Of a stretch of 64,000 bases of DNA, positions 1,188-60,096 are shown one piece after another (positions within the stretch are counted from its first letter, which is position 1; every line of letters begins with the position of its first letter). Source of the stretch: a virus (taxonomy: Duplodnaviria; Caudoviricetes). The notes beneath the pieces were generated by a model, which worked only from the letters and a program-made list of their open reading frames with translations, ran no database searches and was not told the DNA's origin. Where the stretch lies: positions 27,993-91,992 of IMG/VR virus record IMGVR_UViG_3300033073_001448, one strand, 5' to 3'. The translations under genes and the position numbers were made by a program.

Positions 1188-1334
1188 ATGGCGCAGTGGC
1201 AGGAAATGGCTGACTGGTGCTACAACAATCTCTACCATGGCGGTCACTATGAGCCTAACTGGCATCACGAGTGGCCCACTTTTTACTTCTGGGACGAACG
1301 GGAATATACCTTGTTCTTGTTGAGGTGGTCATGA
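1188..1334 (+). CDS. FxLRW-family small protein
   Basis: ADWCYNN...FYF...YTLFLLRWS*; start uncertain (GTG 1182 or ATG 1188). Confidence 0.7.
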   Translation: MAQWQEMADWCYNNLYHGGHYEPNWHHEWPTFYFWDEREYTLFLLRWS

Positions 1335-1552
1335 AAGATACAAAAATAGACATAGATGTTAACCTAAGACGTGCCGCATTAATTTGGGCACGGGAAACCT
1401 TTGGTATGCCAAAACCCCAAGGAGTCGGTTTCTGTGACATGCGCTGGTATCACCGTAGTTTTGCCTCAGTCAACGAACGCAATAAAACCATTGCACGATT
1501 TTATTTCAAGAATCCAGCAGACGCTACATTGTTTGCGTTGAGGTGGTCATGA
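1331..1552 (+). CDS. FxLRW-family small protein
   Basis: WARETFG...FYFKNPADATLFALRWS*; ATGA coupling. Confidence 0.8.
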   Translation: MKDTKIDIDVNLRRAALIWARETFGMPKPQGVGFCDMRWYHRSFASVNERNKTIARFYFKNPADATLFALRWS

Positions 1553-1803
1553 GATTAGAATTCAATCAAGGTGTCTCACAAGAGTGTATAGATTGGTTGT
1601 GGGCTAATGTTGGGCAGGGCAATGTTCAGCCAAAGATAACTGGACCGTTGCGGACATTTTCTCCTTGCGATAACGATGCTTGGTTCTACGAGCGTGTGTT
1701 CATACCAAACCCAGGAACATTTCGTGGTGAAGGCCGTAATGTGCCTACTATTACGGTAAAGGATCCAAAGATGGCCGTGATGTTCGCACTGAGGTGGGCA
1801 TGA
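1549..1803 (+). CDS. FxLRW-family small protein
   Basis: DWLWANVG...MAVMFALRWA*. Confidence 0.8.
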   Translation: MRLEFNQGVSQECIDWLWANVGQGNVQPKITGPLRTFSPCDNDAWFYERVFIPNPGTFRGEGRNVPTITVKDPKMAVMFALRWA

Positions 1804-2027
1804 AAAACGAATTCAATCAATGGTATGTGGCAACTGTATCGCCGCCGCCATATCCTTCTGGGGTATATCATGGATGGACTCCTTGTATGGATTGGTGCAG
1901 AACTGCGTTTGGTGGCGATCCTGCCGCACCTATAACCGTTGGTGCTGGCTGGCGATATCTTTCCGAAGGGGTGTTTGAGTTTGAACGTGAGTTAGATAGA
2001 ACTGCATTTTTACTGAGGTGGTCATGA
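1800..2027 (+). CDS. FxLRW-family small protein
   Basis: DWCRTAFG...FEFERELDRTAFLLRWS*. Confidence 0.8.
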   Translation: MKNEFNQWYVATVSPPPYPSGVYHGWTPCMDWCRTAFGGDPAAPITVGAGWRYLSEGVFEFERELDRTAFLLRWS

Positions 2028-9449: not shown

Positions 9450-10160
9450 ATGAACACTATGATCGCGAATATGAAAGAACTTTCAACCTTTGACGACTTT
9501 GATTGGTTAGACTCTACATCCAAACGGCCGCCACGTGAAATTGCATTTTCGGATGATCCAGTGGCTTTGGCAGTGGCCAGTCATCGACTGTGGATCGAAG
9601 GTGGCCCGCGCTGGTGCGAACTGGACAAAATGAAGCCTACAGATCAAGATCGTACCACTGCACAACAACTGCGCGGTTACTATCGACAGCGCATGGTCAT
9701 GGAAAAACTCAAACAAACCACTGGGGTAGAAACCAGCAGTTTTAGAAAAAAACTGGGACAGTTGGTCACTGATCAACTCTGCATTACCTCAGACGAAGTT
9801 GGTATGCTGATGCGATTGCCGTATTTTTACGCCGAGGATCAAGCAGTGGATCAGGTCATGTCTAATACCGAGTCAGCACAGTTACATCTACGGGGCCAAC
9901 CCTATACCGGTGAGTTCACTTTGGTTCAGCGTGTGTTGCGTAGCCGCCGTAGTGGTGAGTATTATGATTATTGGCTTACTGACGGTGCAAGCCCAACTGC
10001 TCACAGGTTTGTCATGAAAACTGACAATCCTTTGCGTCAATTCATGGAAACTTACATGGATCAAAAATTCCAGGCTCGGGTGTTGATCTACACACAGCCC
10101 ATGCGCGGTTTTTGGCGCGGCCGAAATGTGTATCAGGTGGCGTTCGTTGGGGTAGCATAA
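9450..10160 (+). CDS. hypothetical protein
   Basis: long ORF in operon. Confidence 0.7.
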   Translation: MNTMIANMKELSTFDDFDWLDSTSKRPPREIAFSDDPVALAVASHRLWIEGGPRWCELDKMKPTDQDRTTAQQLRGYYRQRMVMEKLKQTTGVETSSFRKKLGQLVTDQLCITSDEVGMLMRLPYFYAEDQAVDQVMSNTESAQLHLRGQPYTGEFTLVQRVLRSRRSGEYYDYWLTDGASPTAHRFVMKTDNPLRQFMETYMDQKFQARVLIYTQPMRGFWRGRNVYQVAFVGVA

Positions 10161-10378
10161 TGCATCCTGTGGTAGTTCTGCACGTCAACGCTGTGAGAGC
10201 TTTGGAACTACGAGATCAAGTTTTGAGTCATGGATTAATACAAGATCGAGATTTTGTCTGGGAGTACACACAGGCCTCTTATGACAATGATGGGTATACC
10301 GCAGTAACTCCGCGTCAAGTCAAGTTTAAATTTGTGGATCCAGCCATGGCCACATTTTTCAATCTTAAATGGAGGTAA
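10160..10378 (+). CDS. FxLKW-family small protein
   Basis: FKFVDPAMATFFNLKWR*; its W-R codons supply GGAGG upstream of the next gene. Confidence 0.75.
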   Translation: MHPVVVLHVNAVRALELRDQVLSHGLIQDRDFVWEYTQASYDNDGYTAVTPRQVKFKFVDPAMATFFNLKWR

Positions 10379-10385
10379 GTAGAAG

Positions 10386-11186
10386 ATGTCAAAGATACTT
10401 GCTATTTTACTGTTTGTCATGGCTTTTTCAACACAGGCGCATGAAAGCATTTTGGTCTACAACGTATCACAAAATGTTATAGAAATGCAACGCAACGCCG
10501 ATGCTATTCGTCCTATTGCATCAATCACTAAACTTATGACTGCTATCACTACTTTGGACTGGGACAAAGACCTAAGTCGTAAATTGTTATTGAGTGGTCG
10601 AGCCGGTAGCCATTTACCTCGTCAATCTTACAATCGCTATCAACTGTTGATGGCCATGCTGATTCGTTCAGACAATGCTGCCGCTGAAACATTGGCTGAA
10701 GATTATCCCGGCGGACGAGAAGCATTTATTGAGACTATGAATCGCAAAGCCAAAGACTGGGGCATGACTCACACTCATTTTGCCGACGCATCAGGACTCA
10801 GTGCCAGCAATGTTTCAACTGCACGAGATGTTATGAATTTAGTTGAAACTGCTTCGGGTTATTGGCTTATACAAGAAGCAAGCAAGCAGAAACAAATTGC
10901 ACTGGAAACCAAAGCAAAGAAAAAAGTCAGAACTATCGGACTGTCACATACTTCGGGACCGTTATTGTTTGTGTTTGATCAAGTCACTGTGAGCAAGACT
11001 GGACTTACTTCGGCAGCAGGTTGGTGTGTAGGAATGATGGCCCAACAAAACGGGCAGTCGTACATTGTTGTGGTTTTGGGATCCAAAACCAAACAACAAC
11101 GATTTGACACAGTCAAAGACATACGATATAATCATTTCACTGATAAAAATTTATTCGATACACCATTACCTAATAATTATAGATAA
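10386..11186 (+). CDS. peptidase S11 D-Ala-D-Ala carboxy/endopeptidase (PbpG-like)
   Basis: signal peptide; SITK (SxxK), SDN and KTG catalytic motifs. Confidence 0.9.
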   Translation: MSKILAILLFVMAFSTQAHESILVYNVSQNVIEMQRNADAIRPIASITKLMTAITTLDWDKDLSRKLLLSGRAGSHLPRQSYNRYQLLMAMLIRSDNAAAETLAEDYPGGREAFIETMNRKAKDWGMTHTHFADASGLSASNVSTARDVMNLVETASGYWLIQEASKQKQIALETKAKKKVRTIGLSHTSGPLLFVFDQVTVSKTGLTSAAGWCVGMMAQQNGQSYIVVVLGSKTKQQRFDTVKDIRYNHFTDKNLFDTPLPNNYR

Positions 11187-11416
11187 TGCAACTCGAATCA
11201 TATCAGATTAGAGACAAAGAATCCTTTGCTTACGCCAAAGAAATTGCTAAACCTTTTGGTCAATTAGATGTAATTATTGATTGGTGCAGAACGGAACTTT
11301 CTGGTGAGTGGCGCTGGCAGTTGATCCGCACATCCACAGACCGCGAACCTGGCCGCTACATTTTTTACTTTGACTCTGACCGTGATTGCTGTGCGTTTAC
11401 ATTGAAGTGGCAGTAA
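11186..11416 (+). CDS. FxLKW-family small protein
   Basis: DWCRTEL.GEW...FYFDSDRDCCAFTLKWQ*. Confidence 0.75.
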   Translation: MQLESYQIRDKESFAYAKEIAKPFGQLDVIIDWCRTELSGEWRWQLIRTSTDREPGRYIFYFDSDRDCCAFTLKWQ

Positions 11417-19037: not shown

Positions 19038-20501
19038 ATGCACCTAAAATGTCTTGACAACGCAGGTCGAACCGCAGATGTTGTGTTGATCACAACACCT
19101 TGGGTTAACACTAACTTGCCGTTGATGGCCCCTGCTTCTTTGAAGCCTGCCATTGAAATGGCAGGCTATTCTTCTTTTTGTACCGATCTAAATGGTGAGG
19201 TCTATAATCTTCTACAACAGCACCCGTACCGAGAACAGGTGTTGGAATTTTTCTTTGCAGGCACCACGTGTGACAAGATCAAAGATTGGGTTGAAGATTT
19301 TATGAACAGCACTGTAGATCAAATTTTGCAATTTAATCCAAAGTTTGTTGGTCTGAGCTTGTTTACCTATGCGTCACGGAGTGCCTGTTTTTGGATTTGT
19401 GAAAAAATAAAGCAACGTCAGCCCGAGATCAAAATCATAGTTGGCGGCGCTGGTTGCTTGGAGTCTTTCACTGGTCCAGGAATATTTGCTGAAGAAATGA
19501 TAGCTCTAGGGTTGGTAGATTATCATATACGAGGCGATGGTGAACATGCATTGACTCAGTTACTGTTGGGCAACGATCGGTATCCGGGCATCAACAGCCC
19601 AACATGGAAAGAAATTACCAACGAAGAACTACATCAACTTCCTTGGCCTAATTACGACGATTATGATTTTTCGCAATACGAACGCAAAGTAATTGGTATA
19701 CACGGCAGTCGCGGATGTGTGCGAGCTTGTACATTTTGTGACTACATTGAAAATTGGACCAAGTTTCAGTGGCGCACCGCCGAAAGCATATTTGAAGAAA
19801 TGAAAACGCAGTACAAAAAATATGGCATGCGTTACTTTAAATTCAACGATACACTGACCAATGGCAATCTCAAAGAATTCAACAAGTTGATTAAATTATT
19901 GGCCGACCACAACATAGCCAATCCCAACGATCGTTTGCATTGGGGCGGTTACTATATTTTTAGAGAACAGTCAGCCAACGATGACGAAATGTGGAATACT
20001 ATCAAACAATCAGGAGCTTCGTTTTTGGTAGTAGGCATTGAGAATCTCAATGAGGAGATTAGATACCATATTGGCAAAAAGTTCAGCAATGCCAGTATTG
20101 ATTATCATCTTGCCCAGGCCAAAAAACATCGCATAGGCATGCTATTGTTGTTTATTGTGGGCTATGTTACTGAAACTCAGCAACACATTGACTTTAGTAA
20201 AAAGTGGCTAGAGGATCATGTTGAGTTCAAAGATTCTATTCAACTACATTGGGACCAAACCTTGGCTATCTTTCCCAATACGCATTTGCATCGCAACAAA
20301 GACCAGTTAGGCATTAAACTAGGAACCAACCCTCACCTTTGGATCAACATTGAGACTGGGTCCGATCAATCTACCCGCGCTCAATGGATACAAGAGTTAG
20401 TAGACAAAAGTCGAGAGTTAGGCTATAACATCTTAGACAAGGTTGACAATCACTATTATTTAGAGCAGAAATTAAGTGCATTGTCTATGAAAAATCTGTA
20501 A
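19038..20501 (+). CDS. B12-binding radical SAM protein
   Basis: SRGCVRACTFC (CxxxCxxC); N-terminal VGLSLF/IIVGGA/GDGE cobalamin-binding-type domain. Confidence 0.9.
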   Translation: MHLKCLDNAGRTADVVLITTPWVNTNLPLMAPASLKPAIEMAGYSSFCTDLNGEVYNLLQQHPYREQVLEFFFAGTTCDKIKDWVEDFMNSTVDQILQFNPKFVGLSLFTYASRSACFWICEKIKQRQPEIKIIVGGAGCLESFTGPGIFAEEMIALGLVDYHIRGDGEHALTQLLLGNDRYPGINSPTWKEITNEELHQLPWPNYDDYDFSQYERKVIGIHGSRGCVRACTFCDYIENWTKFQWRTAESIFEEMKTQYKKYGMRYFKFNDTLTNGNLKEFNKLIKLLADHNIANPNDRLHWGGYYIFREQSANDDEMWNTIKQSGASFLVVGIENLNEEIRYHIGKKFSNASIDYHLAQAKKHRIGMLLLFIVGYVTETQQHIDFSKKWLEDHVEFKDSIQLHWDQTLAIFPNTHLHRNKDQLGIKLGTNPHLWINIETGSDQSTRAQWIQELVDKSRELGYNILDKVDNHYYLEQKLSALSMKNL

Positions 20502-24177: not shown

Positions 24178-24214
24178 GTATTACATTGACCAATAATCCT
24201 ATATTTGCTATAAT
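24178..24214 (+). promoter_or_regulatory. sigma70 promoter (leaderless) with GTATTAC half-site
   Basis: TTGACC 24186, 17 nt, TATAAT 24209; ATG 6 nt downstream. Confidence 0.8.
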
Positions 24215-24220
24215 ATAGGC

Positions 24221-24448
24221 ATGATTACGCAAACAACCAAGACTTACATTTGTCTGCGCCCTGGCGACCCGGACTTTGCATTTTCGCCCAATGGCATCTC
24301 CCTGGTGCCACGTGCAGGTTTTGAAATCAGCAAAAAGTGTCCGGACCATTACAAACAGATTTTAATGGAATGCTTGCGGCATGACTGGATCACGCCTGTG
24401 GCACACATGCGCGACACTGAATATACCATGGAGTTACTTCGAAAATGA
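24221..24448 (+). CDS. hypothetical protein
   Basis: ORF after promoter. Confidence 0.7.
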   Translation: MITQTTKTYICLRPGDPDFAFSPNGISLVPRAGFEISKKCPDHYKQILMECLRHDWITPVAHMRDTEYTMELLRK

Positions 24449-24840
24449 CAATGCATCTTTGTGGCCCTGCCCTGAGTCTCAACGGCAAGAAAAAAGGCAA
24501 AGTCAAGTTCCGCAACGCCGAAGAGGCTCGCAAGGCACGTGAGCTTGCGGCCGACTGGGAGAAACTTAAAACTAAATGGGCTGTGCCCGCAAAGGAGAAA
24601 CGTGTGGGCAAAATTTTTGAACCCTTACACACTGGTGGTTATCGTTTGACTGCGCCGCCCGGTCGCACTACCTCTCGCGACTTGCCCAGCCGTGTCACAG
24701 AAGGCCATTCCACTGCGGCCGTACACAAGGTCTATACCGGCGACAAAGTTCTTGGCATTGCTACCATGCACAAGTCAAATGCTGTGCCTGTATTTGCACA
24801 GGAAGAGGCTGTGGAAATTTCCAAGATGCGTCGTGGCTAA
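24445..24840 (+). CDS. conserved T4-like phage protein
   Basis: YTGDKVLGIATMHKSNAVPVF...ISKMRR. Confidence 0.75.
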   Translation: MTMHLCGPALSLNGKKKGKVKFRNAEEARKARELAADWEKLKTKWAVPAKEKRVGKIFEPLHTGGYRLTAPPGRTTSRDLPSRVTEGHSTAAVHKVYTGDKVLGIATMHKSNAVPVFAQEEAVEISKMRRG

Positions 24841-25045
24841 ACCGCATTTTATTGTGGCTGACCCAGAGATAGCTCGTAGTCTTGGTCAACCTGTGATTGT
24901 GATGTTGAGCGACATTGCATTTTGGAACATAAATTATGATTCATTGCATGAATGGTGTCGGCAAAATCACAGTGAAGTGCAAGGTATGACTGTGAATATC
25001 CCCGACGATGTCACACTCACTGCATTTTGTTTGAGGTGGGCATGA
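24833..25045 (+). CDS. FxLRW-family small protein
   Basis: EWCRQN...TAFCLRWA*. Confidence 0.75.
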   Translation: MAKPHFIVADPEIARSLGQPVIVMLSDIAFWNINYDSLHEWCRQNHSEVQGMTVNIPDDVTLTAFCLRWA

Positions 25046-25278
25046 TCGAAATTACATTGAACAATCAACTCTGTGATCGAGTGCTATATTATGAAACTGG
25101 ATTCGAACAACTGCATCCTTTGCCTGAAATTCATTGCTGGATGGATCAGCGTGGCCAAACCTACCAACAAGATTGGCATGTCAAGCGTGTAAACCACACC
25201 ATGTATCAACGCAGTCATTACATGTTGGTTATCAACAACGACCAAATAGCAACTGAATTTGTACTACGCTGGCTATGA
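25042..25278 (+). CDS. FxLRW-family small protein
   Basis: CWMDQRG...ATEFVLRWL*. Confidence 0.75.
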   Translation: MIEITLNNQLCDRVLYYETGFEQLHPLPEIHCWMDQRGQTYQQDWHVKRVNHTMYQRSHYMLVINNDQIATEFVLRWL

Positions 25279-25493
25279 TAAAATATCACTATCCCTGGCC
25301 TGAGCAGGCACCTACACTAAAGGTTCCAGTGTTACACCGTGTGAACTTTTCGGGTTATCGTTTTGCAGAAATGCGTGAGTGGTTGGAAGCCAACTGTAGG
25401 GCACCATACTACACCAGTCCAGGATGGACCGGCAACTTTGTTGAGTTTGAAGACGACCAGGATGCCACTGCATTTGCACTGAGGTGGTCATGA
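25275..25493 (+). CDS. FxLRW-family small protein
   Basis: EWLEANC...VEFEDDQDATAFALRWS*. Confidence 0.8.
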   Translation: MIKYHYPWPEQAPTLKVPVLHRVNFSGYRFAEMREWLEANCRAPYYTSPGWTGNFVEFEDDQDATAFALRWS

Positions 25494-25714
25494 TCTTAGC
25501 CACAGTCAAACTGTATCATCCGAAACAACAAAATCGTTGGGTTGACGAAAGCCCTATCAATGTGTGGCTGTTGGCCAATGTTGGTGTTCATGCCCGCTAT
25601 AGAGATTTAGTAGACGAATCAAGACCGTGGCATGTGGATCATGAAAGAGATTATCTTGTGTATCACTTTGCTCGTGAGCGCGATGCCACAGCGTTTGCAC
25701 TGAAGTTTGCATGA
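25490..25714 (+). CDS. FxLRW-family small protein
   Basis: WLLANVG...YHFARERDATAFALKFA*. Confidence 0.8.
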   Translation: MILATVKLYHPKQQNRWVDESPINVWLLANVGVHARYRDLVDESRPWHVDHERDYLVYHFARERDATAFALKFA

Positions 25715-25932
25715 ATCCACTGTTGGTTCACGAAGTTGTAATCTACAACGATGATTGGTACAAGGCAGAAGCTTGGTGCGAGCAAAACATTGGGCAATTT
25801 AATATCACATGGTATAAACTTGGTATTGATCCGTTGGAGATGATGATGCGTTCCCCAGGAGCCAAAACCAAGACAGTTTGGTATTTCCTCCGCGAACAAG
25901 ACGCAACAATGTTTAAACTAAAATGGACGTGA
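25711..25932 (+). CDS. FxLKW-family small protein
   Basis: AWCEQNIG...WYFLREQDATMFKLKWT*. Confidence 0.8.
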   Translation: MNPLLVHEVVIYNDDWYKAEAWCEQNIGQFNITWYKLGIDPLEMMMRSPGAKTKTVWYFLREQDATMFKLKWT

Positions 25933-26144
25933 TGGGTACCAAAACATTTGCTGAAAAGGGCAGAGTTCGACTGGTGGGTGACGAAAGAGATGTCGCTGTG
26001 GTTTCAAACTATCGCGAAGATGTATGGGCATGGTGCGATGCCAACAACATCGAGGTGGAATATCAAGGAACTTTGGCCAAAGTAGATCTCTGGCGTATTC
26101 GCAATGAGCAACAACGTGTGGCATTTTTATTAAAATGGAGTTAG
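25932..26144 (+). CDS. FxLKW-family small protein
   Basis: AWCDANN...VAFLLKWS*. Confidence 0.75.
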   Translation: MGTKTFAEKGRVRLVGDERDVAVVSNYREDVWAWCDANNIEVEYQGTLAKVDLWRIRNEQQRVAFLLKWS

Positions 26145-26386
26145 ATATCAGCGAAGGCTCAGTGTATGGTGCAAGGTACTATACTGTGCGCCCAATGTTT
26201 CCAGCACATGCGCCAACTTGGTTTAGGCAAGAATGGGATGATATGCTACAATGGTGTGTTAGTACATTCGGTCCCACACCTGAAGATGGTGTATGGACAC
26301 CTGGTGCTCGCTGGTATGTCAACAATTCTAAGTTTTGGTTTCGAAATGAGCAAGATCGCTCTTGGTTTGTATTAAGGTGGACATGA
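26135..26386 (+). CDS. FxLRW-family small protein
   Basis: QWCVSTFG...FWFRNEQDRSWFVLRWT*. Confidence 0.8.
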   Translation: MELDISEGSVYGARYYTVRPMFPAHAPTWFRQEWDDMLQWCVSTFGPTPEDGVWTPGARWYVNNSKFWFRNEQDRSWFVLRWT

Positions 26387-26631
26387 TGCCGGAACGATTT
26401 TGTGTACCGATTACCTATGGCAACTTTGGTGAAAAGTGGCCCACATACTTTGAAAACTTTTTTCGACATTGCAATGAAATAGCCGAAGCCAATGGCTGGA
26501 TGCCTATTACCGTGATGAACCATCAACTAAAACCCTATGGAGGCAAACTGATTATGACCAAAACACAAGGATGGTATCTGCGATGGGACACCGAATCTGC
26601 ACAAACGGCGTTTGTACTGAAATGGAATTAA
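26383..26631 (+). CDS. FxLKW-family small protein
   Basis: LRWDTESAQTAFVLKWN*. Confidence 0.75.
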   Translation: MMPERFCVPITYGNFGEKWPTYFENFFRHCNEIAEANGWMPITVMNHQLKPYGGKLIMTKTQGWYLRWDTESAQTAFVLKWN

Positions 26632-26633
26632 TT

Positions 26634-26930
26634 ATGTCAGGATTTCAATCAAAGCGCATGATAACAACCCATGGACGAGGAATGGGCAAATCAGTTTGGG
26701 CCAATATGATTAGAGAACTAACAATGCCAGATGTAAAAGTTTTGGACAGTGCCGACGTTGACGGAAAAACATGGTATACAGTACAATTGAGTATGCCTGC
26801 CAGGGAGTGGCTACGGGAACAACCTACAGAAGATTGGCATGAGCACATTGATCAACGATATTACGTAAATCAAAGTATGTTTGACATAAGTGAACAGATG
26901 TATTCAGCACTGACATTAAAATGGAGTTGA
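26634..26930 (+). CDS. LKW-family small protein with N-terminal GRGMGKS
   Basis: EWLREQ...YSALTLKWS*. Confidence 0.7.
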   Translation: MSGFQSKRMITTHGRGMGKSVWANMIRELTMPDVKVLDSADVDGKTWYTVQLSMPAREWLREQPTEDWHEHIDQRYYVNQSMFDISEQMYSALTLKWS

Positions 26931-27298
26931 ATACACCTTTCAAAATTAGGGACCTGCCCGACAATTCATGGTCAGTGAGTTGGCCCGGCTATGAATATGT
27001 TTTGGTCAACAACATTGTCAAGGCACAGAATTTACTTGAAATTTTATTTGACAAACTCAAAATCAATGAAGTAGAGTTAGCTCTGCGTAGAGAAGGTTGG
27101 AGTGAAGATAAAACCGAAATCATGCACGTCAATGTGTCTGCCTGGTGGCAAGATAAAGTCGGTTTGGCAAAGTATCTCACTGATTTTATTGTTGTAGGAA
27201 TAAAGTTTAGAGATCTTGCTAAAGCAGAACAATTCAAAGACATTATGGACAAGCGACTAATGTGGTCCAGACTCAGCGGCGGAAAAAAGTGGAAATGA
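26921..27298 (+). CDS. hypothetical protein
   Basis: starts within the K-W codons of the upstream gene. Confidence 0.65.
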   Translation: MELNTPFKIRDLPDNSWSVSWPGYEYVLVNNIVKAQNLLEILFDKLKINEVELALRREGWSEDKTEIMHVNVSAWWQDKVGLAKYLTDFIVVGIKFRDLAKAEQFKDIMDKRLMWSRLSGGKKWK

Positions 27299-28813: not shown

Positions 28814-29194
28814 ATGGATTGGGAAAAATCGGAAGTGGTACGACTACTCAAGGGCGCACCGGGCACACACTATCAAGAAGCAGATGATACAAATAAAACA
28901 ATTATTAGAGATTGGATTCGCAGTCTGCTACAAAGAAGTTCTATCACAGTGACCTTTGTCAAAGCCGACGGCACTGTGCGCGACATGAAATGTACTCTAA
29001 ACTGGGAGTTAATTCCTGTAGACAAACAGCCCAAGGGCGATGTTCCTGTGGAAAATTTGCTTAAAGAAAACAAAAAACCCCGCAAAGAACCTGATCCGCA
29101 CAGCCTCAGGGTATTTGACATTGAGAAGCAAGAATGGCGCAGTTTCCGTTTTGACCGACTGCAAAAGGTCACTGCGGAATTAGAATTCAAATAA
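28814..29194 (+). CDS. WYL_2/Sm-like SH3 protein
   Basis: VTFVKADGTVRDMKCTL...VFDIEKQEWRSFRFDRL. Confidence 0.8.
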   Translation: MDWEKSEVVRLLKGAPGTHYQEADDTNKTIIRDWIRSLLQRSSITVTFVKADGTVRDMKCTLNWELIPVDKQPKGDVPVENLLKENKKPRKEPDPHSLRVFDIEKQEWRSFRFDRLQKVTAELEFK

Positions 29195-44286: not shown

Positions 44287-44586
44287 ATGCGATATTTCAT
44301 AATCACCTATTATCAAAAAGCCAACGGCCAGCAAGATGAAGTCACTGCCGTTACAAAAAATCTTAAAACAAGAGATCTACAGTGTGCCACAATAATTCTG
44401 GATTTTAAAAAATGTGAAGTTGTCAAGGCCACCATGGGCGGTGTAAATGTGCCCAAGAATTTCGACAACATTGTTGGATACTACCGACAGCACTATAAAA
44501 ACATCATTGATCGACTGTTTGCTGAAAATGGTTTTGAAGTCATTGAACAACAGCCAGAAAAAGATGAAACACCAACTAGTGCCTAA
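44287..44586 (+). CDS. conserved phage hypothetical protein
   Basis: MRYFIITYYQKANGQ.DE...IILDFK. Confidence 0.7.
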   Translation: MRYFIITYYQKANGQQDEVTAVTKNLKTRDLQCATIILDFKKCEVVKATMGGVNVPKNFDNIVGYYRQHYKNIIDRLFAENGFEVIEQQPEKDETPTSA

Positions 44587-45484
44587 GTTAATGGCCGTGC
44601 TATTGGCCCTGACCAGTTTTGCACATGCCGAAGAATTCCGCCTGGTTGTGCCTTTTGGTCCTGGCAGCCAAAGTGACGCCGCTGCTCGTGCTGTGATTCA
44701 GACCTTTGAGCGTAACACCGGGCACAATGTTGTGGTAGAAACCATTCCTGGCGCAGACTCAATTATTGGTATCAATCATTGGAAATCCACACAGGCTGAT
44801 TTGATTTGGCTCGGCCCCGGACCTTTGGTGTACAATGTTGTGCTCAAAAAGGACTTGCCTTACAACGCAGACACAGATTTTGATCATTTGATCTACGTGG
44901 GAACCACGCCCTTTTACTATATTGTGAACAGCGCCAGTAAAATTCAAGGACCCAAAGATATTGTGGTCAAAAACAATGGTTTTGCTGGCGTGAATACTTC
45001 TGTGGGCACTGCCAATGTTTCTGCGCTGAACCATGATCAAAAAACCAAAATTCAGCCTGTGCCGTTTAAAGGCAGTCCCGAAGTAATCATGGCCGTGGCC
45101 AATGGCACAGTGGACTTGGCAGTGATTGGTATCACTGCCAGCGTAGTAGAACTGGCACGTGCCGGAAAGATCAGCATCGTGGGCACTACTCATCGCGAGT
45201 CAGTGACCATTGATGGCCAACGGGTGCCCAGTGTGAGCCAACAGACTGGAATCCCACAATTCAGTGGCTTTTTTGCCATTGCCGCCCGTCCCGGAATGGA
45301 CGCTCGACGACTGGCTATTCTGCGGCAAGGACTTTGGGCGGCTGTCCAGGATTCCGAAACGCAGGAAAAACTGCGCCGTTTATTTGTGTTTGCTGACTCC
45401 AGCAATGATGTGCGGCAAATCACAAATTTTTACCAAGAACTAAGAACTAGATATAGAAAGTTTGAAAAAACAAATGTTGAATAA
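44564..45484 (+). CDS. Bug/TctC tripartite tricarboxylate transporter substrate-binding protein
   Basis: signal peptide; LVVPFGPGSQSDAAAR, VETIPGA, VPFKGS. Confidence 0.85.
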   Translation: MKHQLVPKLMAVLLALTSFAHAEEFRLVVPFGPGSQSDAAARAVIQTFERNTGHNVVVETIPGADSIIGINHWKSTQADLIWLGPGPLVYNVVLKKDLPYNADTDFDHLIYVGTTPFYYIVNSASKIQGPKDIVVKNNGFAGVNTSVGTANVSALNHDQKTKIQPVPFKGSPEVIMAVANGTVDLAVIGITASVVELARAGKISIVGTTHRESVTIDGQRVPSVSQQTGIPQFSGFFAIAARPGMDARRLAILRQGLWAAVQDSETQEKLRRLFVFADSSNDVRQITNFYQELRTRYRKFEKTNVE

Positions 45485-46373
45485 ATTAATTGCCACAGTG
45501 ATTCTAGCACTGGGCTTGACCGTACATGCTGAAGAATATCGTATGATTATTCCCTACGCTGCCGGCAGTCAAGCCGATGTTGCGTCTAGAATTATCATTA
45601 AAAACTTTGAACGCATCACTGGAGACAAAATCTTTATTGAATTAGCACCCGGTGCTGACTCAGTGATTGGCATCAATGCCTTTAAGAATTCCAAAGCAGA
45701 CTTGATCTTTTTGGGATCGGGCGCCAGCATCTATGCACCTGTGCTGAAAAAAGACCTGCCCTATGACCCCGACGTGGATTTTGATCGGATTCTGTATGTG
45801 GGCACCGCACCTGCTGTGTGGTTCTCACGCCCGGGCACTGCTGTTAAAACGCCTGCAGATTTGGTCACACATTTACCACAGTTTGTGGGCACCAATGCCA
45901 GTCACGGCACAGCCAATGTGGCCATAGTGAATCGCGAGAAAAATGGCAATTCCGAAACTACTCTGTACAAAGGCAGTCCCGAAACTATCACTGCTGTGAT
46001 CGGAGGCAGTATTGATCTAGGCATTGTGAATCCCACTGCTACCATGATTGAATTGGCCAAAGCCGGTAAAATTACCTTGATTGGCAGCACTTATCATGAG
46101 GACATTGTGATCGACGGGGTACCAATTCCCAGTGTGCATCGTCGCACCAAAATACACCAATTAAATGGATCAACCGAAATTGCCGCTCGCCCCGGAATGG
46201 ATCCTGCACGTTTGGAACGACTGCGTCAAGGACTTTGGGCTGCTGTTCGAGATCCTGATACACAGGAAAAATTGCGGTTGATTTTTATCATGCCCGATGC
46301 TACAATAAATCAGCAATGGATCAACAACTACACACGAGAAATTAGAGAGCGTTTTCGACGATATTCACGATGA
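45474..46373 (+). CDS. Bug/TctC substrate-binding protein (tandem paralog)
   Basis: IIPYAAGSQADVASR, LYKGSPE; shares LKKDLPY and LRQGLWAAV with the upstream gene. Confidence 0.85.
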   Translation: MLNKLIATVILALGLTVHAEEYRMIIPYAAGSQADVASRIIIKNFERITGDKIFIELAPGADSVIGINAFKNSKADLIFLGSGASIYAPVLKKDLPYDPDVDFDRILYVGTAPAVWFSRPGTAVKTPADLVTHLPQFVGTNASHGTANVAIVNREKNGNSETTLYKGSPETITAVIGGSIDLGIVNPTATMIELAKAGKITLIGSTYHEDIVIDGVPIPSVHRRTKIHQLNGSTEIAARPGMDPARLERLRQGLWAAVRDPDTQEKLRLIFIMPDATINQQWINNYTREIRERFRRYSR

Positions 46374-59136: not shown

Positions 59137-60096
59137 ATGCGTATACTAAAATTTCTAGCACTGGCAACATTGGCCAGTTCAGCCTGGGCATGGCAACCCA
59201 GCAAGCCTGTTACTGTGATTTTCCCCAATGGCCCCGGTGCTGGAAATGAAATATCATTTCGCATAGTTGCTGATCAAATTGAGCGTCAAACTGGTGCAAA
59301 GTTTGTGTCAGAGTACAAACCAGGAGCAGACGGCAACATTGCCGGCAACTACTTTGCCACAGCCAACAACGACGGACACACTGTGATGGTACCTGCTTGC
59401 CAATCAAATTGGGTCACGCCCGACATATGGTATGGACGCATGGTTCGATATGATGCACAGAACTTTGAGCCTGTGGCCAACATTGCTAGATCTCCCTTGG
59501 CATTTTGGGCTAACCCACGAAGCTCAGTGAACACGCCTGAAGATTTAGTACGATTGATCCAGAGCCGCAGTCGTCCAGTCAACATTGCCATTGGCGGCGG
59601 TGGTCACAAATTAGCAGTGGAATATCTCAAAGCACATTTAAATGTCAGCGGAGGCGATTTAATTGAAACGCCCATGTACAAAGGTCCTGCACAAGCACTG
59701 TTAGATGTCATGGGAGGCACAGTGGAATTTGGTGTTACTCCTGTGGCTGTGGGCTGGCCTCATGTGCAATCGGGCAAACTTAAATTGATTGGTATTGCTG
59801 ACACACGCACATTGCCAGGGCTAGAAAAGTATCCACTGATGACTCGCGTGGTACCAAATCTCAGCATACACGGCTGCTGGAACTTGGTATTGCCGCCCGG
59901 AACACCGCAAGATGTGCAACAATGGTATCATGACAAATTTGTACCTGCTATACGCAGTGCAGAATCTGCTGCCAAGTTCAAAGACAACATGATGTATATT
60001 TCAGAAAATGAACACACCGCAGCAGGTGTGCGTGCCGCTATGTATCGACTAAGACATCAGTGGCAACCTATTGCTCGCAGGATCAAACCAGAATGA
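59137..60096 (+). CDS. Bug/TctC substrate-binding protein
   Basis: signal peptide; WQPSKPVTVIFPNGPGAGNE, YKPGADG, YKGPAQALLDVMGG, LPPGTP. Confidence 0.88.
   Translation: MRILKFLALATLASSAWAWQPSKPVTVIFPNGPGAGNEISFRIVADQIERQTGAKFVSEYKPGADGNIAGNYFATANNDGHTVMVPACQSNWVTPDIWYGRMVRYDAQNFEPVANIARSPLAFWANPRSSVNTPEDLVRLIQSRSRPVNIAIGGGGHKLAVEYLKAHLNVSGGDLIETPMYKGPAQALLDVMGGTVEFGVTPVAVGWPHVQSGKLKLIGIADTRTLPGLEKYPLMTRVVPNLSIHGCWNLVLPPGTPQDVQQWYHDKFVPAIRSAESAAKFKDNMMYISENEHTAAGVRAAMYRLRHQWQPIARRIKPE

Follow-up and report, generated by a model that had tools for sequence, protein, structure and literature searches.

Why should a series of small genes in a phage genome end in the same 14 bp? This question is raised by a stretch of 64,000 nt (hereafter the window, to which all coordinates refer unless a contig is named) of the 91,992-bp IMG/VR record IMGVR_UViG_3300033073_001448, which stems from a giant uncultured freshwater phage. 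The record is a fragment estimated to be 27% complete; complete relatives of this phage have genomes of 349-360 kb. The shared gene end, which we call the joint, combines the C-terminal codons of one gene with a Shine-Dalgarno (SD) sequence, a stop codon, and the start codon of the next gene. We consider it probable that the joint is both a dual-coded translation signal and a preferred crossover site for the exchange of whole genes. The observation as such was confirmed, and the interpretation is supported, its mechanism being partly resolved.

The 14-mer TGAGGTGGKCATGA occurs six times in the window, at positions 1321, 1539, 1790, 2014, 25032, and 25480, always on the + strand, and a variant, TAAGGTGGACATGA, is found at 26373. 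All of these had been listed in a first-pass annotation of the sequence. In dinucleotide-preserving shuffles 0.07 copies are expected and six copies were never reached in 100 trials. The rest of the 92-kb record contains no further copy of the 14-mer. Every copy, and likewise the variant at 26373, forms the last 14 nt of a small gene and is read in the frame (C/T)TG AGG TGG (T/G/A)CA TGA, i.e. L-R-W-S/A/T-stop. The ATG of the next gene overlaps the stop codon as ATGA on the same strand in all six 14-mers and in the variant, and the motif GAGG lies 5 nt upstream of this overlapping ATG, inside the upstream gene. Each copy thus reads as had been claimed, with the L-R-W-x-stop ending, the AGG arginine codon, GAGG 5 nt before the ATG and the ATGA overlap.

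The annotation had also described K-W versions of the joint, and at the sequence level these were found as well. An ATG within AAATGG opens an open reading frame (ORF) at 26135 and at 26921, and at 10370-10388 the sequence TGG AGG TAA is followed after 7 nt by an ATG. The latter belongs to a solitary gene (10160-10378, + strand) that ends in LKWR and whose last codon, AGG, completes a GGAGG motif 7 nt before the ATG at 10386. The two Lys-type joints at 26131-26145 and 26917-26931 have TTAAAATGGAGTT in common. At both, the candidate downstream ORFs start with M-E-L from the ATG of AAATGG, overlapping the upstream gene by 10 nt, and no SD-like motif is evident upstream of these candidate starts. 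A further family tail, in contig L109 (6225-6255), reads ...TTACTCAAGTCAAGTGGTCATGA; an apparent AAGT duplication shifts the L-K-W frame yet keeps GGTCATGA.

For comparison about 250 related contigs were gathered via four query sets, namely the 131-aa gene located 5' of the second gene array, the genes beside the first array, near-identical proteins of the family described below, and close homologues of gene 1331-1552. Megablast and tblastn with segments of the window detected no match among 50,697 deposited phage records, the 1236-aa and 351-aa proteins retrieved no usable relatives, and an exact-sequence look-up of the protein encoded at 1800-2024 returned no further contig. Within the related loci (4.49 Mb, both strands) the 14-mer has 39 occurrences of distinct sequence, where 0.03 are expected. 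The stop of a family gene positive by profile hidden Markov model is the site of 36 of these; two are at family-like tails and one is a solo remnant.

The genes that end in the joint belong to one protein family. The record contains sixteen members: four at 1188-2027 (array 1), nine at 24833-26930 (array 2), two solitary genes (10160-10378 and 11186-11416), and one gene upstream of the window. The proteins are small, about 50-100 aa, and strongly diverged. In an alignment of the 15 window members, the sequences are 17-33% identical to the first member; patterns could not be back-translated from the family alignment because of its divergence. Within the genome no paralog pair exceeds 35% identity, while for most family genes the closest relative (50-64%) is found in another phage, in some cases in the other slot; the fourth gene of array 1 (1800-2027), for instance, has its closest relative (51%) in the array-2 slot of another phage, L074. 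The members in the window share the C-terminal pattern W...W...F-x-F...D-x-T-x-F-x-L-[RK]-W-x.

A profile search of 1.84 billion representative proteins returned 1292 clusters, and the end of the profile nearly always coincided with the C-terminus of the protein. Among the best 150 clusters, the terminus is formed by RW followed by 1-3 residues in 107 and by KW in 35; serine is the last residue in 73 of 123. The family is large, unnamed, and restricted to phages. Neither Pfam nor PHROGs contains a model for it, and no description of the family or of the joint was found in the literature. An AlphaFold2 model of an 83-aa member (pLDDT 93.6) predicts a β-hairpin, a helix, a second β-hairpin, and a C-terminal helix (residues 72-82) ending in LRW. 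Foldseek found no significant match for this model in the PDB, and the matches in BFVD are exclusively uncharacterized proteins of uncultured phages. Taken together, the profile search, the structural model, and the divergence of the family argue for the LRW tail being a genuine and old feature of the protein.

The conservation of the tail bears on a further claim of the annotation, according to which similarity between the joints extends 27-33 nt upstream and provides homology for recombination. The similarity is real: four copies of 23 nt are 78-100% identical. It encodes the conserved peptide D-x-T-A-F-x-L-R-W-S. When synonymous identity was determined for sixteen tails, a clear excess was seen at the R/K codon and at the last codon and a smaller one at codons -5 and -7; otherwise it was at the level of chance. 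As the excess is mainly confined to the R/K codon and the last codon, the extended upstream homology is best explained as a by-product of amino-acid conservation, and there is no indication of selection on it for recombination.

If the protein requires L-R-W, the choice among the arginine codons can still tell whether the DNA sequence has a function of its own. AGG is the rarest arginine codon genome-wide (59 of 1427, 4.1%). It is found at seven of the eight arginine positions of family tails in the window (binomial p = 1.5e-9). Genome-wide, 11 of 61 AGG codons (18%) lie 5-16 nt before a downstream start compared with 0.3-1.2% of the CGN codons, and three of these eleven are outside the family. 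Since paralogs share ancestry, the test was repeated with 125 distinct family joints from about 120 related contigs. Where an ORF-opening ATG follows the arginine codon at a distance of 6-13 nt, the codon is AGG in 35 cases, AGA in 7, and CGN in 2 (AGG 35/44). Where there is no such near ATG, the numbers are 3, 2, and 7, respectively (AGG 3/12). The difference is significant for AGG versus the rest (Fisher, p = 8e-4) and for AGR versus CGN (p = 1e-4). AGG also prevails over AGA by 38 to 9 (38/47 AGR codons versus 19% background, p = 2e-19), AGA being four times commoner in the genome; simple toggling between K (AAR) and R (AGR) is therefore insufficient. The enrichment of AGG that the annotation had put forward for comparison with genome-wide usage was thus borne out and depends on the presence of a start. 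Both results support its proposal that each gene carries the translation signal for the gene that follows.

A duplex of 9 bp is predicted between UUGAGGUGGUCAUGA and the canonical 16S 3' tail GAUCACCUCCUUA; this is the textbook tail and may not be that of the host. In silico the duplex with AGG/TCA reaches -15.8 kcal/mol, compared with -9.1 kcal/mol for AGA, -5.2 kcal/mol for CGU, and -7.9 kcal/mol for one AAGGAG site of the phage. Part of the pairing is contributed by the Trp and Ser codons. On account of the AGG bias, its dependence on a start, and the predicted 9-bp pairing, the joint very likely drives translation of the next gene, and we infer that the SD sequence is used in vivo. The use of the rare AGG codon would then be due to the overlapping information at the joint. 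In its stop-start overlap and its SD-like motif inside the upstream gene the joint fits ATGA-type translational coupling.

Strong promoters are found only at 69-97 and 24186-24214. The former is a sigma70-like promoter, TTGACC-17-TATAAT, matching at 11/12 positions and with a TG, which heads the operon containing array 1; the latter, also TTGACC-17-TATAAT, heads the operon with array 2 (both + strand). No 11/12-match promoter was found inside the arrays, nor is there a promoter comparable to that at 69-97 inside array 1. The family genes would hence be promoterless units in long operons relying on the joint for initiation.

The second possible role of the joint, that of a site where genes are exchanged, was assessed by comparing the two arrays with the corresponding regions of the relatives. 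According to these alignments, whole genes have been gained, lost, exchanged, reordered, and moved exactly at the joint in related phages. The family genes occupy two fixed slots which hold from none to more than 15 of them. The array-2 slot is bounded on the left by a conserved 131-aa gene (24445-24840, + strand), present in more than 100 related contigs, and on the right by a conserved 126-aa WYL_2 (Sm-like SH3) gene (28814-29194, + strand), which is followed by infA; in relatives such as L039 the WYL_2 gene is directly followed by the phage infA (IF-1). This slot measures 2 nt to 3.6 kb with 0-7 family genes in the relatives and 3974 nt with nine genes in the window. For the array-1 slot the lengths extend from 13 nt to about 7.7 kb. 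The number of family genes per record differs as well: two complete relatives have 2 and 7, the present fragment has 16, and another fragment has 31.

Close relatives show the individual changes. Over 3089 nt contig L245 matches the window at 100% identity. In L246, which is 99% identical, the gene 25042-25278 is gone, the gap running from ATGA to ATGA. L001 (80-97% identical) is without gene 25490-25714, and the flanks of this deletion overlap by a 33-nt joint; three genes in 25923-26631 are missing as well, with the break in AAATGGA, and the two genes in 24833-25278 are replaced by one unrelated family member. Ahead of this replacing member L001 contains, at its positions 377-391, a 'solo' joint, TTGAGGTGGGCATGA, directly after the stop of the 131-aa gene and with no family gene body, the counterpart of the joint at 25032-25045. 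It looks like a deletion scar that has kept the SD sequence and the start for the next gene.

In array 1, gene 1331-1552 has 90-92% nucleotide identity to genes in L247 and L249, the similarity beginning at 1312/1320 and stopping exactly at 1552. At the joint 1539-1552 the window and four relatives carry four different genes straight after TTGAGGTGG[TG]CAT[GA]A. L247 has four extra genes (856 nt) at the joint 1321-1334, located between two copies of the 24-nt sequence CTGTTTTTGTTGAGGTGGTCATGA. In L251 and L253, which are 99% identical, a 62-aa family cassette is swapped for an unrelated 68-aa one, with joints on both sides. Two inversions of gene order were detected: the 1331-type gene precedes the MNNTV-type gene in L247 and follows it in L249 (86% amino-acid identity), and genes for 69 and 60 aa in L247 correspond to genes for 60 and 67 aa, in this order, in L251 (72% and 80%). 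Genes have also moved between the slots. Window positions 25473-25932, i.e. two array-2 cassettes with the preceding joint, are found in the array-1 slot of L249 with 77% nucleotide identity (proteins 86% and 74%), and L251 likewise has a copy of 25676-25926 in its array-1 slot.

Of 25 internal similarity breakpoints in the two arrays, 20 fall within -33 to +3 nt of a family stop, a zone that makes up 16% of the array length (binomial p = 4e-12); a further two coincide with the end of the 131-aa gene, at its stop. Some crossovers are located within the coding tail, 16-27 nt from its end. Thus, comparing L105 and L109, the short allele has the right-hand joint from 23 nt upstream of the ATGA. 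Crossovers fall at different points within the joint, and the joint itself varies freely (K/R, S/A/T, TAA/TGA). In an all-against-all scan of 245 loci 46 clustered gene-sized insertions or deletions (indels) were found, eight of them at family joints with overlaps of 6-33 nt. Gene order is hence not fixed, and insertions, deletions, a swap, inversions, and a move between the arrays break at the joint, in agreement with the cassette behaviour proposed in the first-pass annotation.

Several observations weigh against the joint acting both as a start signal and as a favoured crossover site. With regard to translation, one family tail in the window has CGC (25264-25266) with the ATGA overlap. Lysine codons (AAA/AAG) are present in 69 of the 125 family joints, where pairing amounts to -5.8 and -9.2 kcal/mol and ATGA is mostly kept. 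Since over half of the joints use lysine with weak pairing, a strong SD sequence is an option rather than a requirement. AAG as an enriched weak SD sequence was considered and rejected, as lysine codons near starts are AAG in 17 of 49 cases against a background of 32%, i.e. there is no enrichment. With regard to recombination, the deletion in L246 joined poorly matching joints and used little more than ATGA, and 38 of the 46 indel clusters are at non-family borders, many of them at ATGAA, AAATGA, TGGCTAA or 0-7 nt of microhomology. Whole genes are also gained or lost with nothing more than ATGA as microhomology, so that such changes do not depend on the extended joint. Indels with gene-precise ends are a general feature of this phage group, and selection in favour of intact products must play a part. 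Such selection, or microhomology alone, could give the same pattern. Neither gene conversion nor selection for homology in its own right has left a sign in the sequences; homogenisation of the tails by gene conversion was rejected because of the chance level of synonymous identity outside the codons named above. Finally, all evidence is comparative or in silico and derives from metagenome assemblies.

These points lead to the alternative that the joint is translational only and that genes are gained and lost by random illegitimate recombination or by events at 4-7 nt of microhomology, the survivors being those that keep genes and coupling intact. The many indels at non-family boundaries, some with 0-3 nt overlap, fit this explanation, as do the ATGA-to-ATGA deletion in L246 and the fact that the tails show little excess of synonymous identity apart from the codons of the SD sequence and the stop. 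On this account, however, the crossovers well inside the coding tail (L105 versus L109) are not expected, the one-for-one swap at 99% identity and the order inversions would each need two precise illegitimate events, and family genes provide eight of the 46 indel clusters. We regard a purely translational joint as rather unlikely, and much more so the opposite simplification, that GAGG and AGG reflect protein conservation alone, being inherited or produced by toggling between K (AAG) and R (AGG) without any function in translation. It is true that over 1000 clusters have kept LRW/LKW, that the motif is part of a helix predicted with confidence, that K and R alternate at the site, and that AAG and AGG differ by a single transition. 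Between paralogs of 17-35% identity synonymous sites should nevertheless be saturated, yet AGG dominates among the AGR codons, codon choice follows the presence of a near start, and AGG is enriched upstream of starts outside the family, too. Conservation without translational function is very improbable.

A site-specific, integron-like system in which the joint is the site of a dedicated recombinase would account for promoterless cassettes in one orientation behind a single promoter and for their movement between two slots. Indeed, like integron cassettes, the family genes are single-gene units of variable number and order downstream of a promoter. The arrays differ from an integron in that all cassettes encode one protein family and attC-like repeats are lacking: the region 1150-2350 contains zero inverted repeats or attC-like structures. 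Moreover, a search for the tyrosine recombinase family PF00589, with positive controls, gave no match in the record, in two relatives that are 97-100% complete, or in another fragment of 25% completeness. The free variation of the joint and the differing crossover points within it argue in the same direction. With neither integrase nor inverted repeats, integron-like machinery was rejected as highly improbable. Equally improbable are assembly artefacts, i.e. false short alleles created by assemblers jumping between repeated joints. Several informative contigs are indeed short (L001 1.1 kb, L246 0.6 kb). The repeats of 14-33 nt are mismatched, however, and are shorter than, or non-identical over, the k-mers of the assembly (contig L246 is named k141); L001 differs from the window by 4-20% along its whole length and carries a joint variant of its own; and these events were seen again in long contigs assembled independently from different samples. 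Chimeric assemblies were rejected on these grounds.

The reading we favour, a joint that serves translation and is preferred in crossover, suggests the following mechanism. A cassette would consist of a promoterless gene body plus the joint. The same bases of the joint would finish the protein, GAGGUGGUC would form a strong SD sequence, UGA would stop translation, and the AUG overlapping it as AUGA would start the next gene. Because the joint combines tail, SD sequence, stop, and start, any downstream gene would receive a ready-made translation start. Because all cassettes end in the same 14-33 nt abutting an ATG, an exchange between two joints in register could change whole genes with expression being kept. 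Such in-register exchange would remove, add, replace, or permute cassettes, and changes of this kind have been frequent in the phage population. The agent could be general recombination of the RecA/UvsX type encoded by the phage, or slippage during replication between short direct repeats. The complete relatives do encode a RecA/UvsX-like protein, and together with the lack of a tyrosine integrase and of inverted repeats this makes general homologous recombination or slippage the likely agent. We infer that the homology at the joint raises the rate of recombination, beyond defining which products survive. A more far-reaching version, in which the joint is an evolved, self-perpetuating module of mobility and expression, a counterpart in translation of the PeSL cassettes discussed below, and promoterless cassettes leave as circles and re-enter other joints, between the slots and between co-infecting jumbo phages, by means of a UvsX-type recombinase only, appears to us doubtful.

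The part of the operon with array 1 (1188-2339, genes on the + strand) illustrates the arrangement. Its first family gene (1188-1334) codes for 48 aa from the ATG at 1188, the start being uncertain, and ends in LFLLRWS; the joint TGAGGTGGTCATGA at 1321-1334 provides LRWS, the stop, the SD sequence, and the next ATG. The second gene (1331-1552, 73 aa) ends in the same joint, TGAGGTGGTCATGA (1539-1552), the third (1549-1803, 84 aa) in TGAGGTGGGCATGA (1790-1803), and the fourth (1800-2027, 75 aa) again in TGAGGTGGTCATGA (2014-2027). The fourth joint feeds a gene outside the family (2024-2317), which takes its SD sequence and start from it and encodes 97 aa with a signal-peptide-like N-terminus. 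A GC-rich hairpin terminator (2318-2339), kept in L249, closes the operon. Between 1530-1569 and 1781-1820 the direct repeat runs 17 nt past the ATGA (GAATTCAATCAA), and because of this extension genes 1549-1803 and 1800-2027 share the N-terminal motif M-x-x-EFNQ.

Array 2 (24833-26930, + strand) is a chain of nine family genes located at 24833-25045, 25042-25278, 25275-25493, 25490-25714, 25711-25932, 25923-26144, 26135-26386, 26383-26631, and 26637-26930. Its arginine joints comprise TGAGGTGGGCATGA at 25032-25045, TGAGGTGGTCATGA at 25480-25493, and the variant TAAGGTGGACATGA, coding for LRWT, at 26373-26386. The second solitary gene (11186-11416, + strand) ends in LKWQ-TAA and has no adjacent downstream start.

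Among published systems the joint most closely resembles the PeSL cassettes of the hyperplastic regions of T4-type phages (Arbiol et al. 2010, PMC2839356; Comeau et al. 2014, PMC4122927). In both cases small, non-essential ORFans are flanked by short conserved expression signals, and it is at these signals that close relatives differ by indels or replacements; general phage recombination is invoked in place of a dedicated integrase, and expression of the joined gene is assured. The ORFs flanked by the joint, too, are present in some close relatives and absent from others, with breakpoints inside the element. A PeSL is an intergenic promoter plus stem-loop terminator of ~100 bp which renders the ORFan transcriptionally autonomous, whereas the joint consists of 14-33 nt of coding sequence, acts in translation, and belongs to promoterless cassettes. 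The defining combination of a sigma70-like promoter and a stem-loop within ~100 bp was sought at the joint and was not found there. By analogy the joint may thus be said to work like a PeSL without being one. Mini-circles have been shown for PeSLs, which were compared in these studies with integrons and with Botstein linkers (PMC2839356, PMC4122927). According to the former study, which cites Singer et al. (1982), recombination in T4-type phages needs <50 bp of homology (PMC2839356). PeSL-like elements are also present among the relatives and account for two of the 38 indel clusters at non-family borders: in L028 (656-936) and L145 (3053-3285) single-gene indels between close relatives lie between 59-nt direct repeats, TTTGGTTGACC...TGCTATAATA...AAGGAG, composed of an early promoter and an SD sequence.

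Coupling by ATGA/TGATG overlaps with the SD sequence in the upstream gene has been described, termination-reinitiation being an alternative route (Huber et al. 2019, PMC6728339). The joint shares with it the 4-nt overlap, the SD-like motif in the last codons, and the co-directed genes of an operon. It differs from ordinary ATGA coupling in being repeated at dozens of gene ends via the C-terminus of a protein family and in coinciding with recombination breakpoints. The 'linkers' of Botstein and Susskind, in the passages of PMC2839356 that treat them, are conserved sequences located where modules meet, for which a role in targeting exchange and in keeping the modules correctly placed and regulated was proposed. 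As portrayed there they separate the functional modules of lambdoid phages; in the present arrays each module is one small gene, and its linker is dual-coded. We see in the joint a combination of linker-mediated modular shuffling with translational coupling. The annotation had further likened the array to a gene accordion. As in accordions of the poxvirus type, the array is tandem and copy number varies strongly (2 to 31 here), but the copies are ancient, at 17-35% identity, and have their nearest relatives in other phages and slots. Recent tandem amplification was rejected for this reason, and this part of the claim falls.

Elsewhere the window codes for a clamp-loader-like AAA+ protein and, in an early-gene region (19038-20501), for a 487-aa protein with B12-binding and radical-SAM domains. 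Three paralogs of TctC/Bug-type periplasmic solute-binding receptors (PF03401) are encoded at 44447-45484, 45474-46373, and 59137-60096. The TctC/Bug family is greatly expanded in Burkholderiales, and the paralogs may point to a host among the betaproteobacteria or, alternatively, to an auxiliary function in uptake.

How phages shuffle their accessory genes is a long-running question, the alternatives being targeted exchange at 'linkers' and random illegitimate recombination followed by selection. The arrays described here offer a natural system for this question, with dozens of cassettes, a sharp joint of 14-33 nt, and many independent events, some of them between genomes that are 99% identical. 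They also present an extreme case of overlapping information, as 14 bases accommodate the end of a helix, a ribosome-binding site, a stop, and a start. Accessory-gene libraries of uncultured jumbo phages could be mined with the joint as a handle. Should the joint prove to be a mobility module as well, the invariant tail of the protein family would be kept partly for the portability of the gene, and this would lend support to Botstein's 'linker' model of mosaicism.

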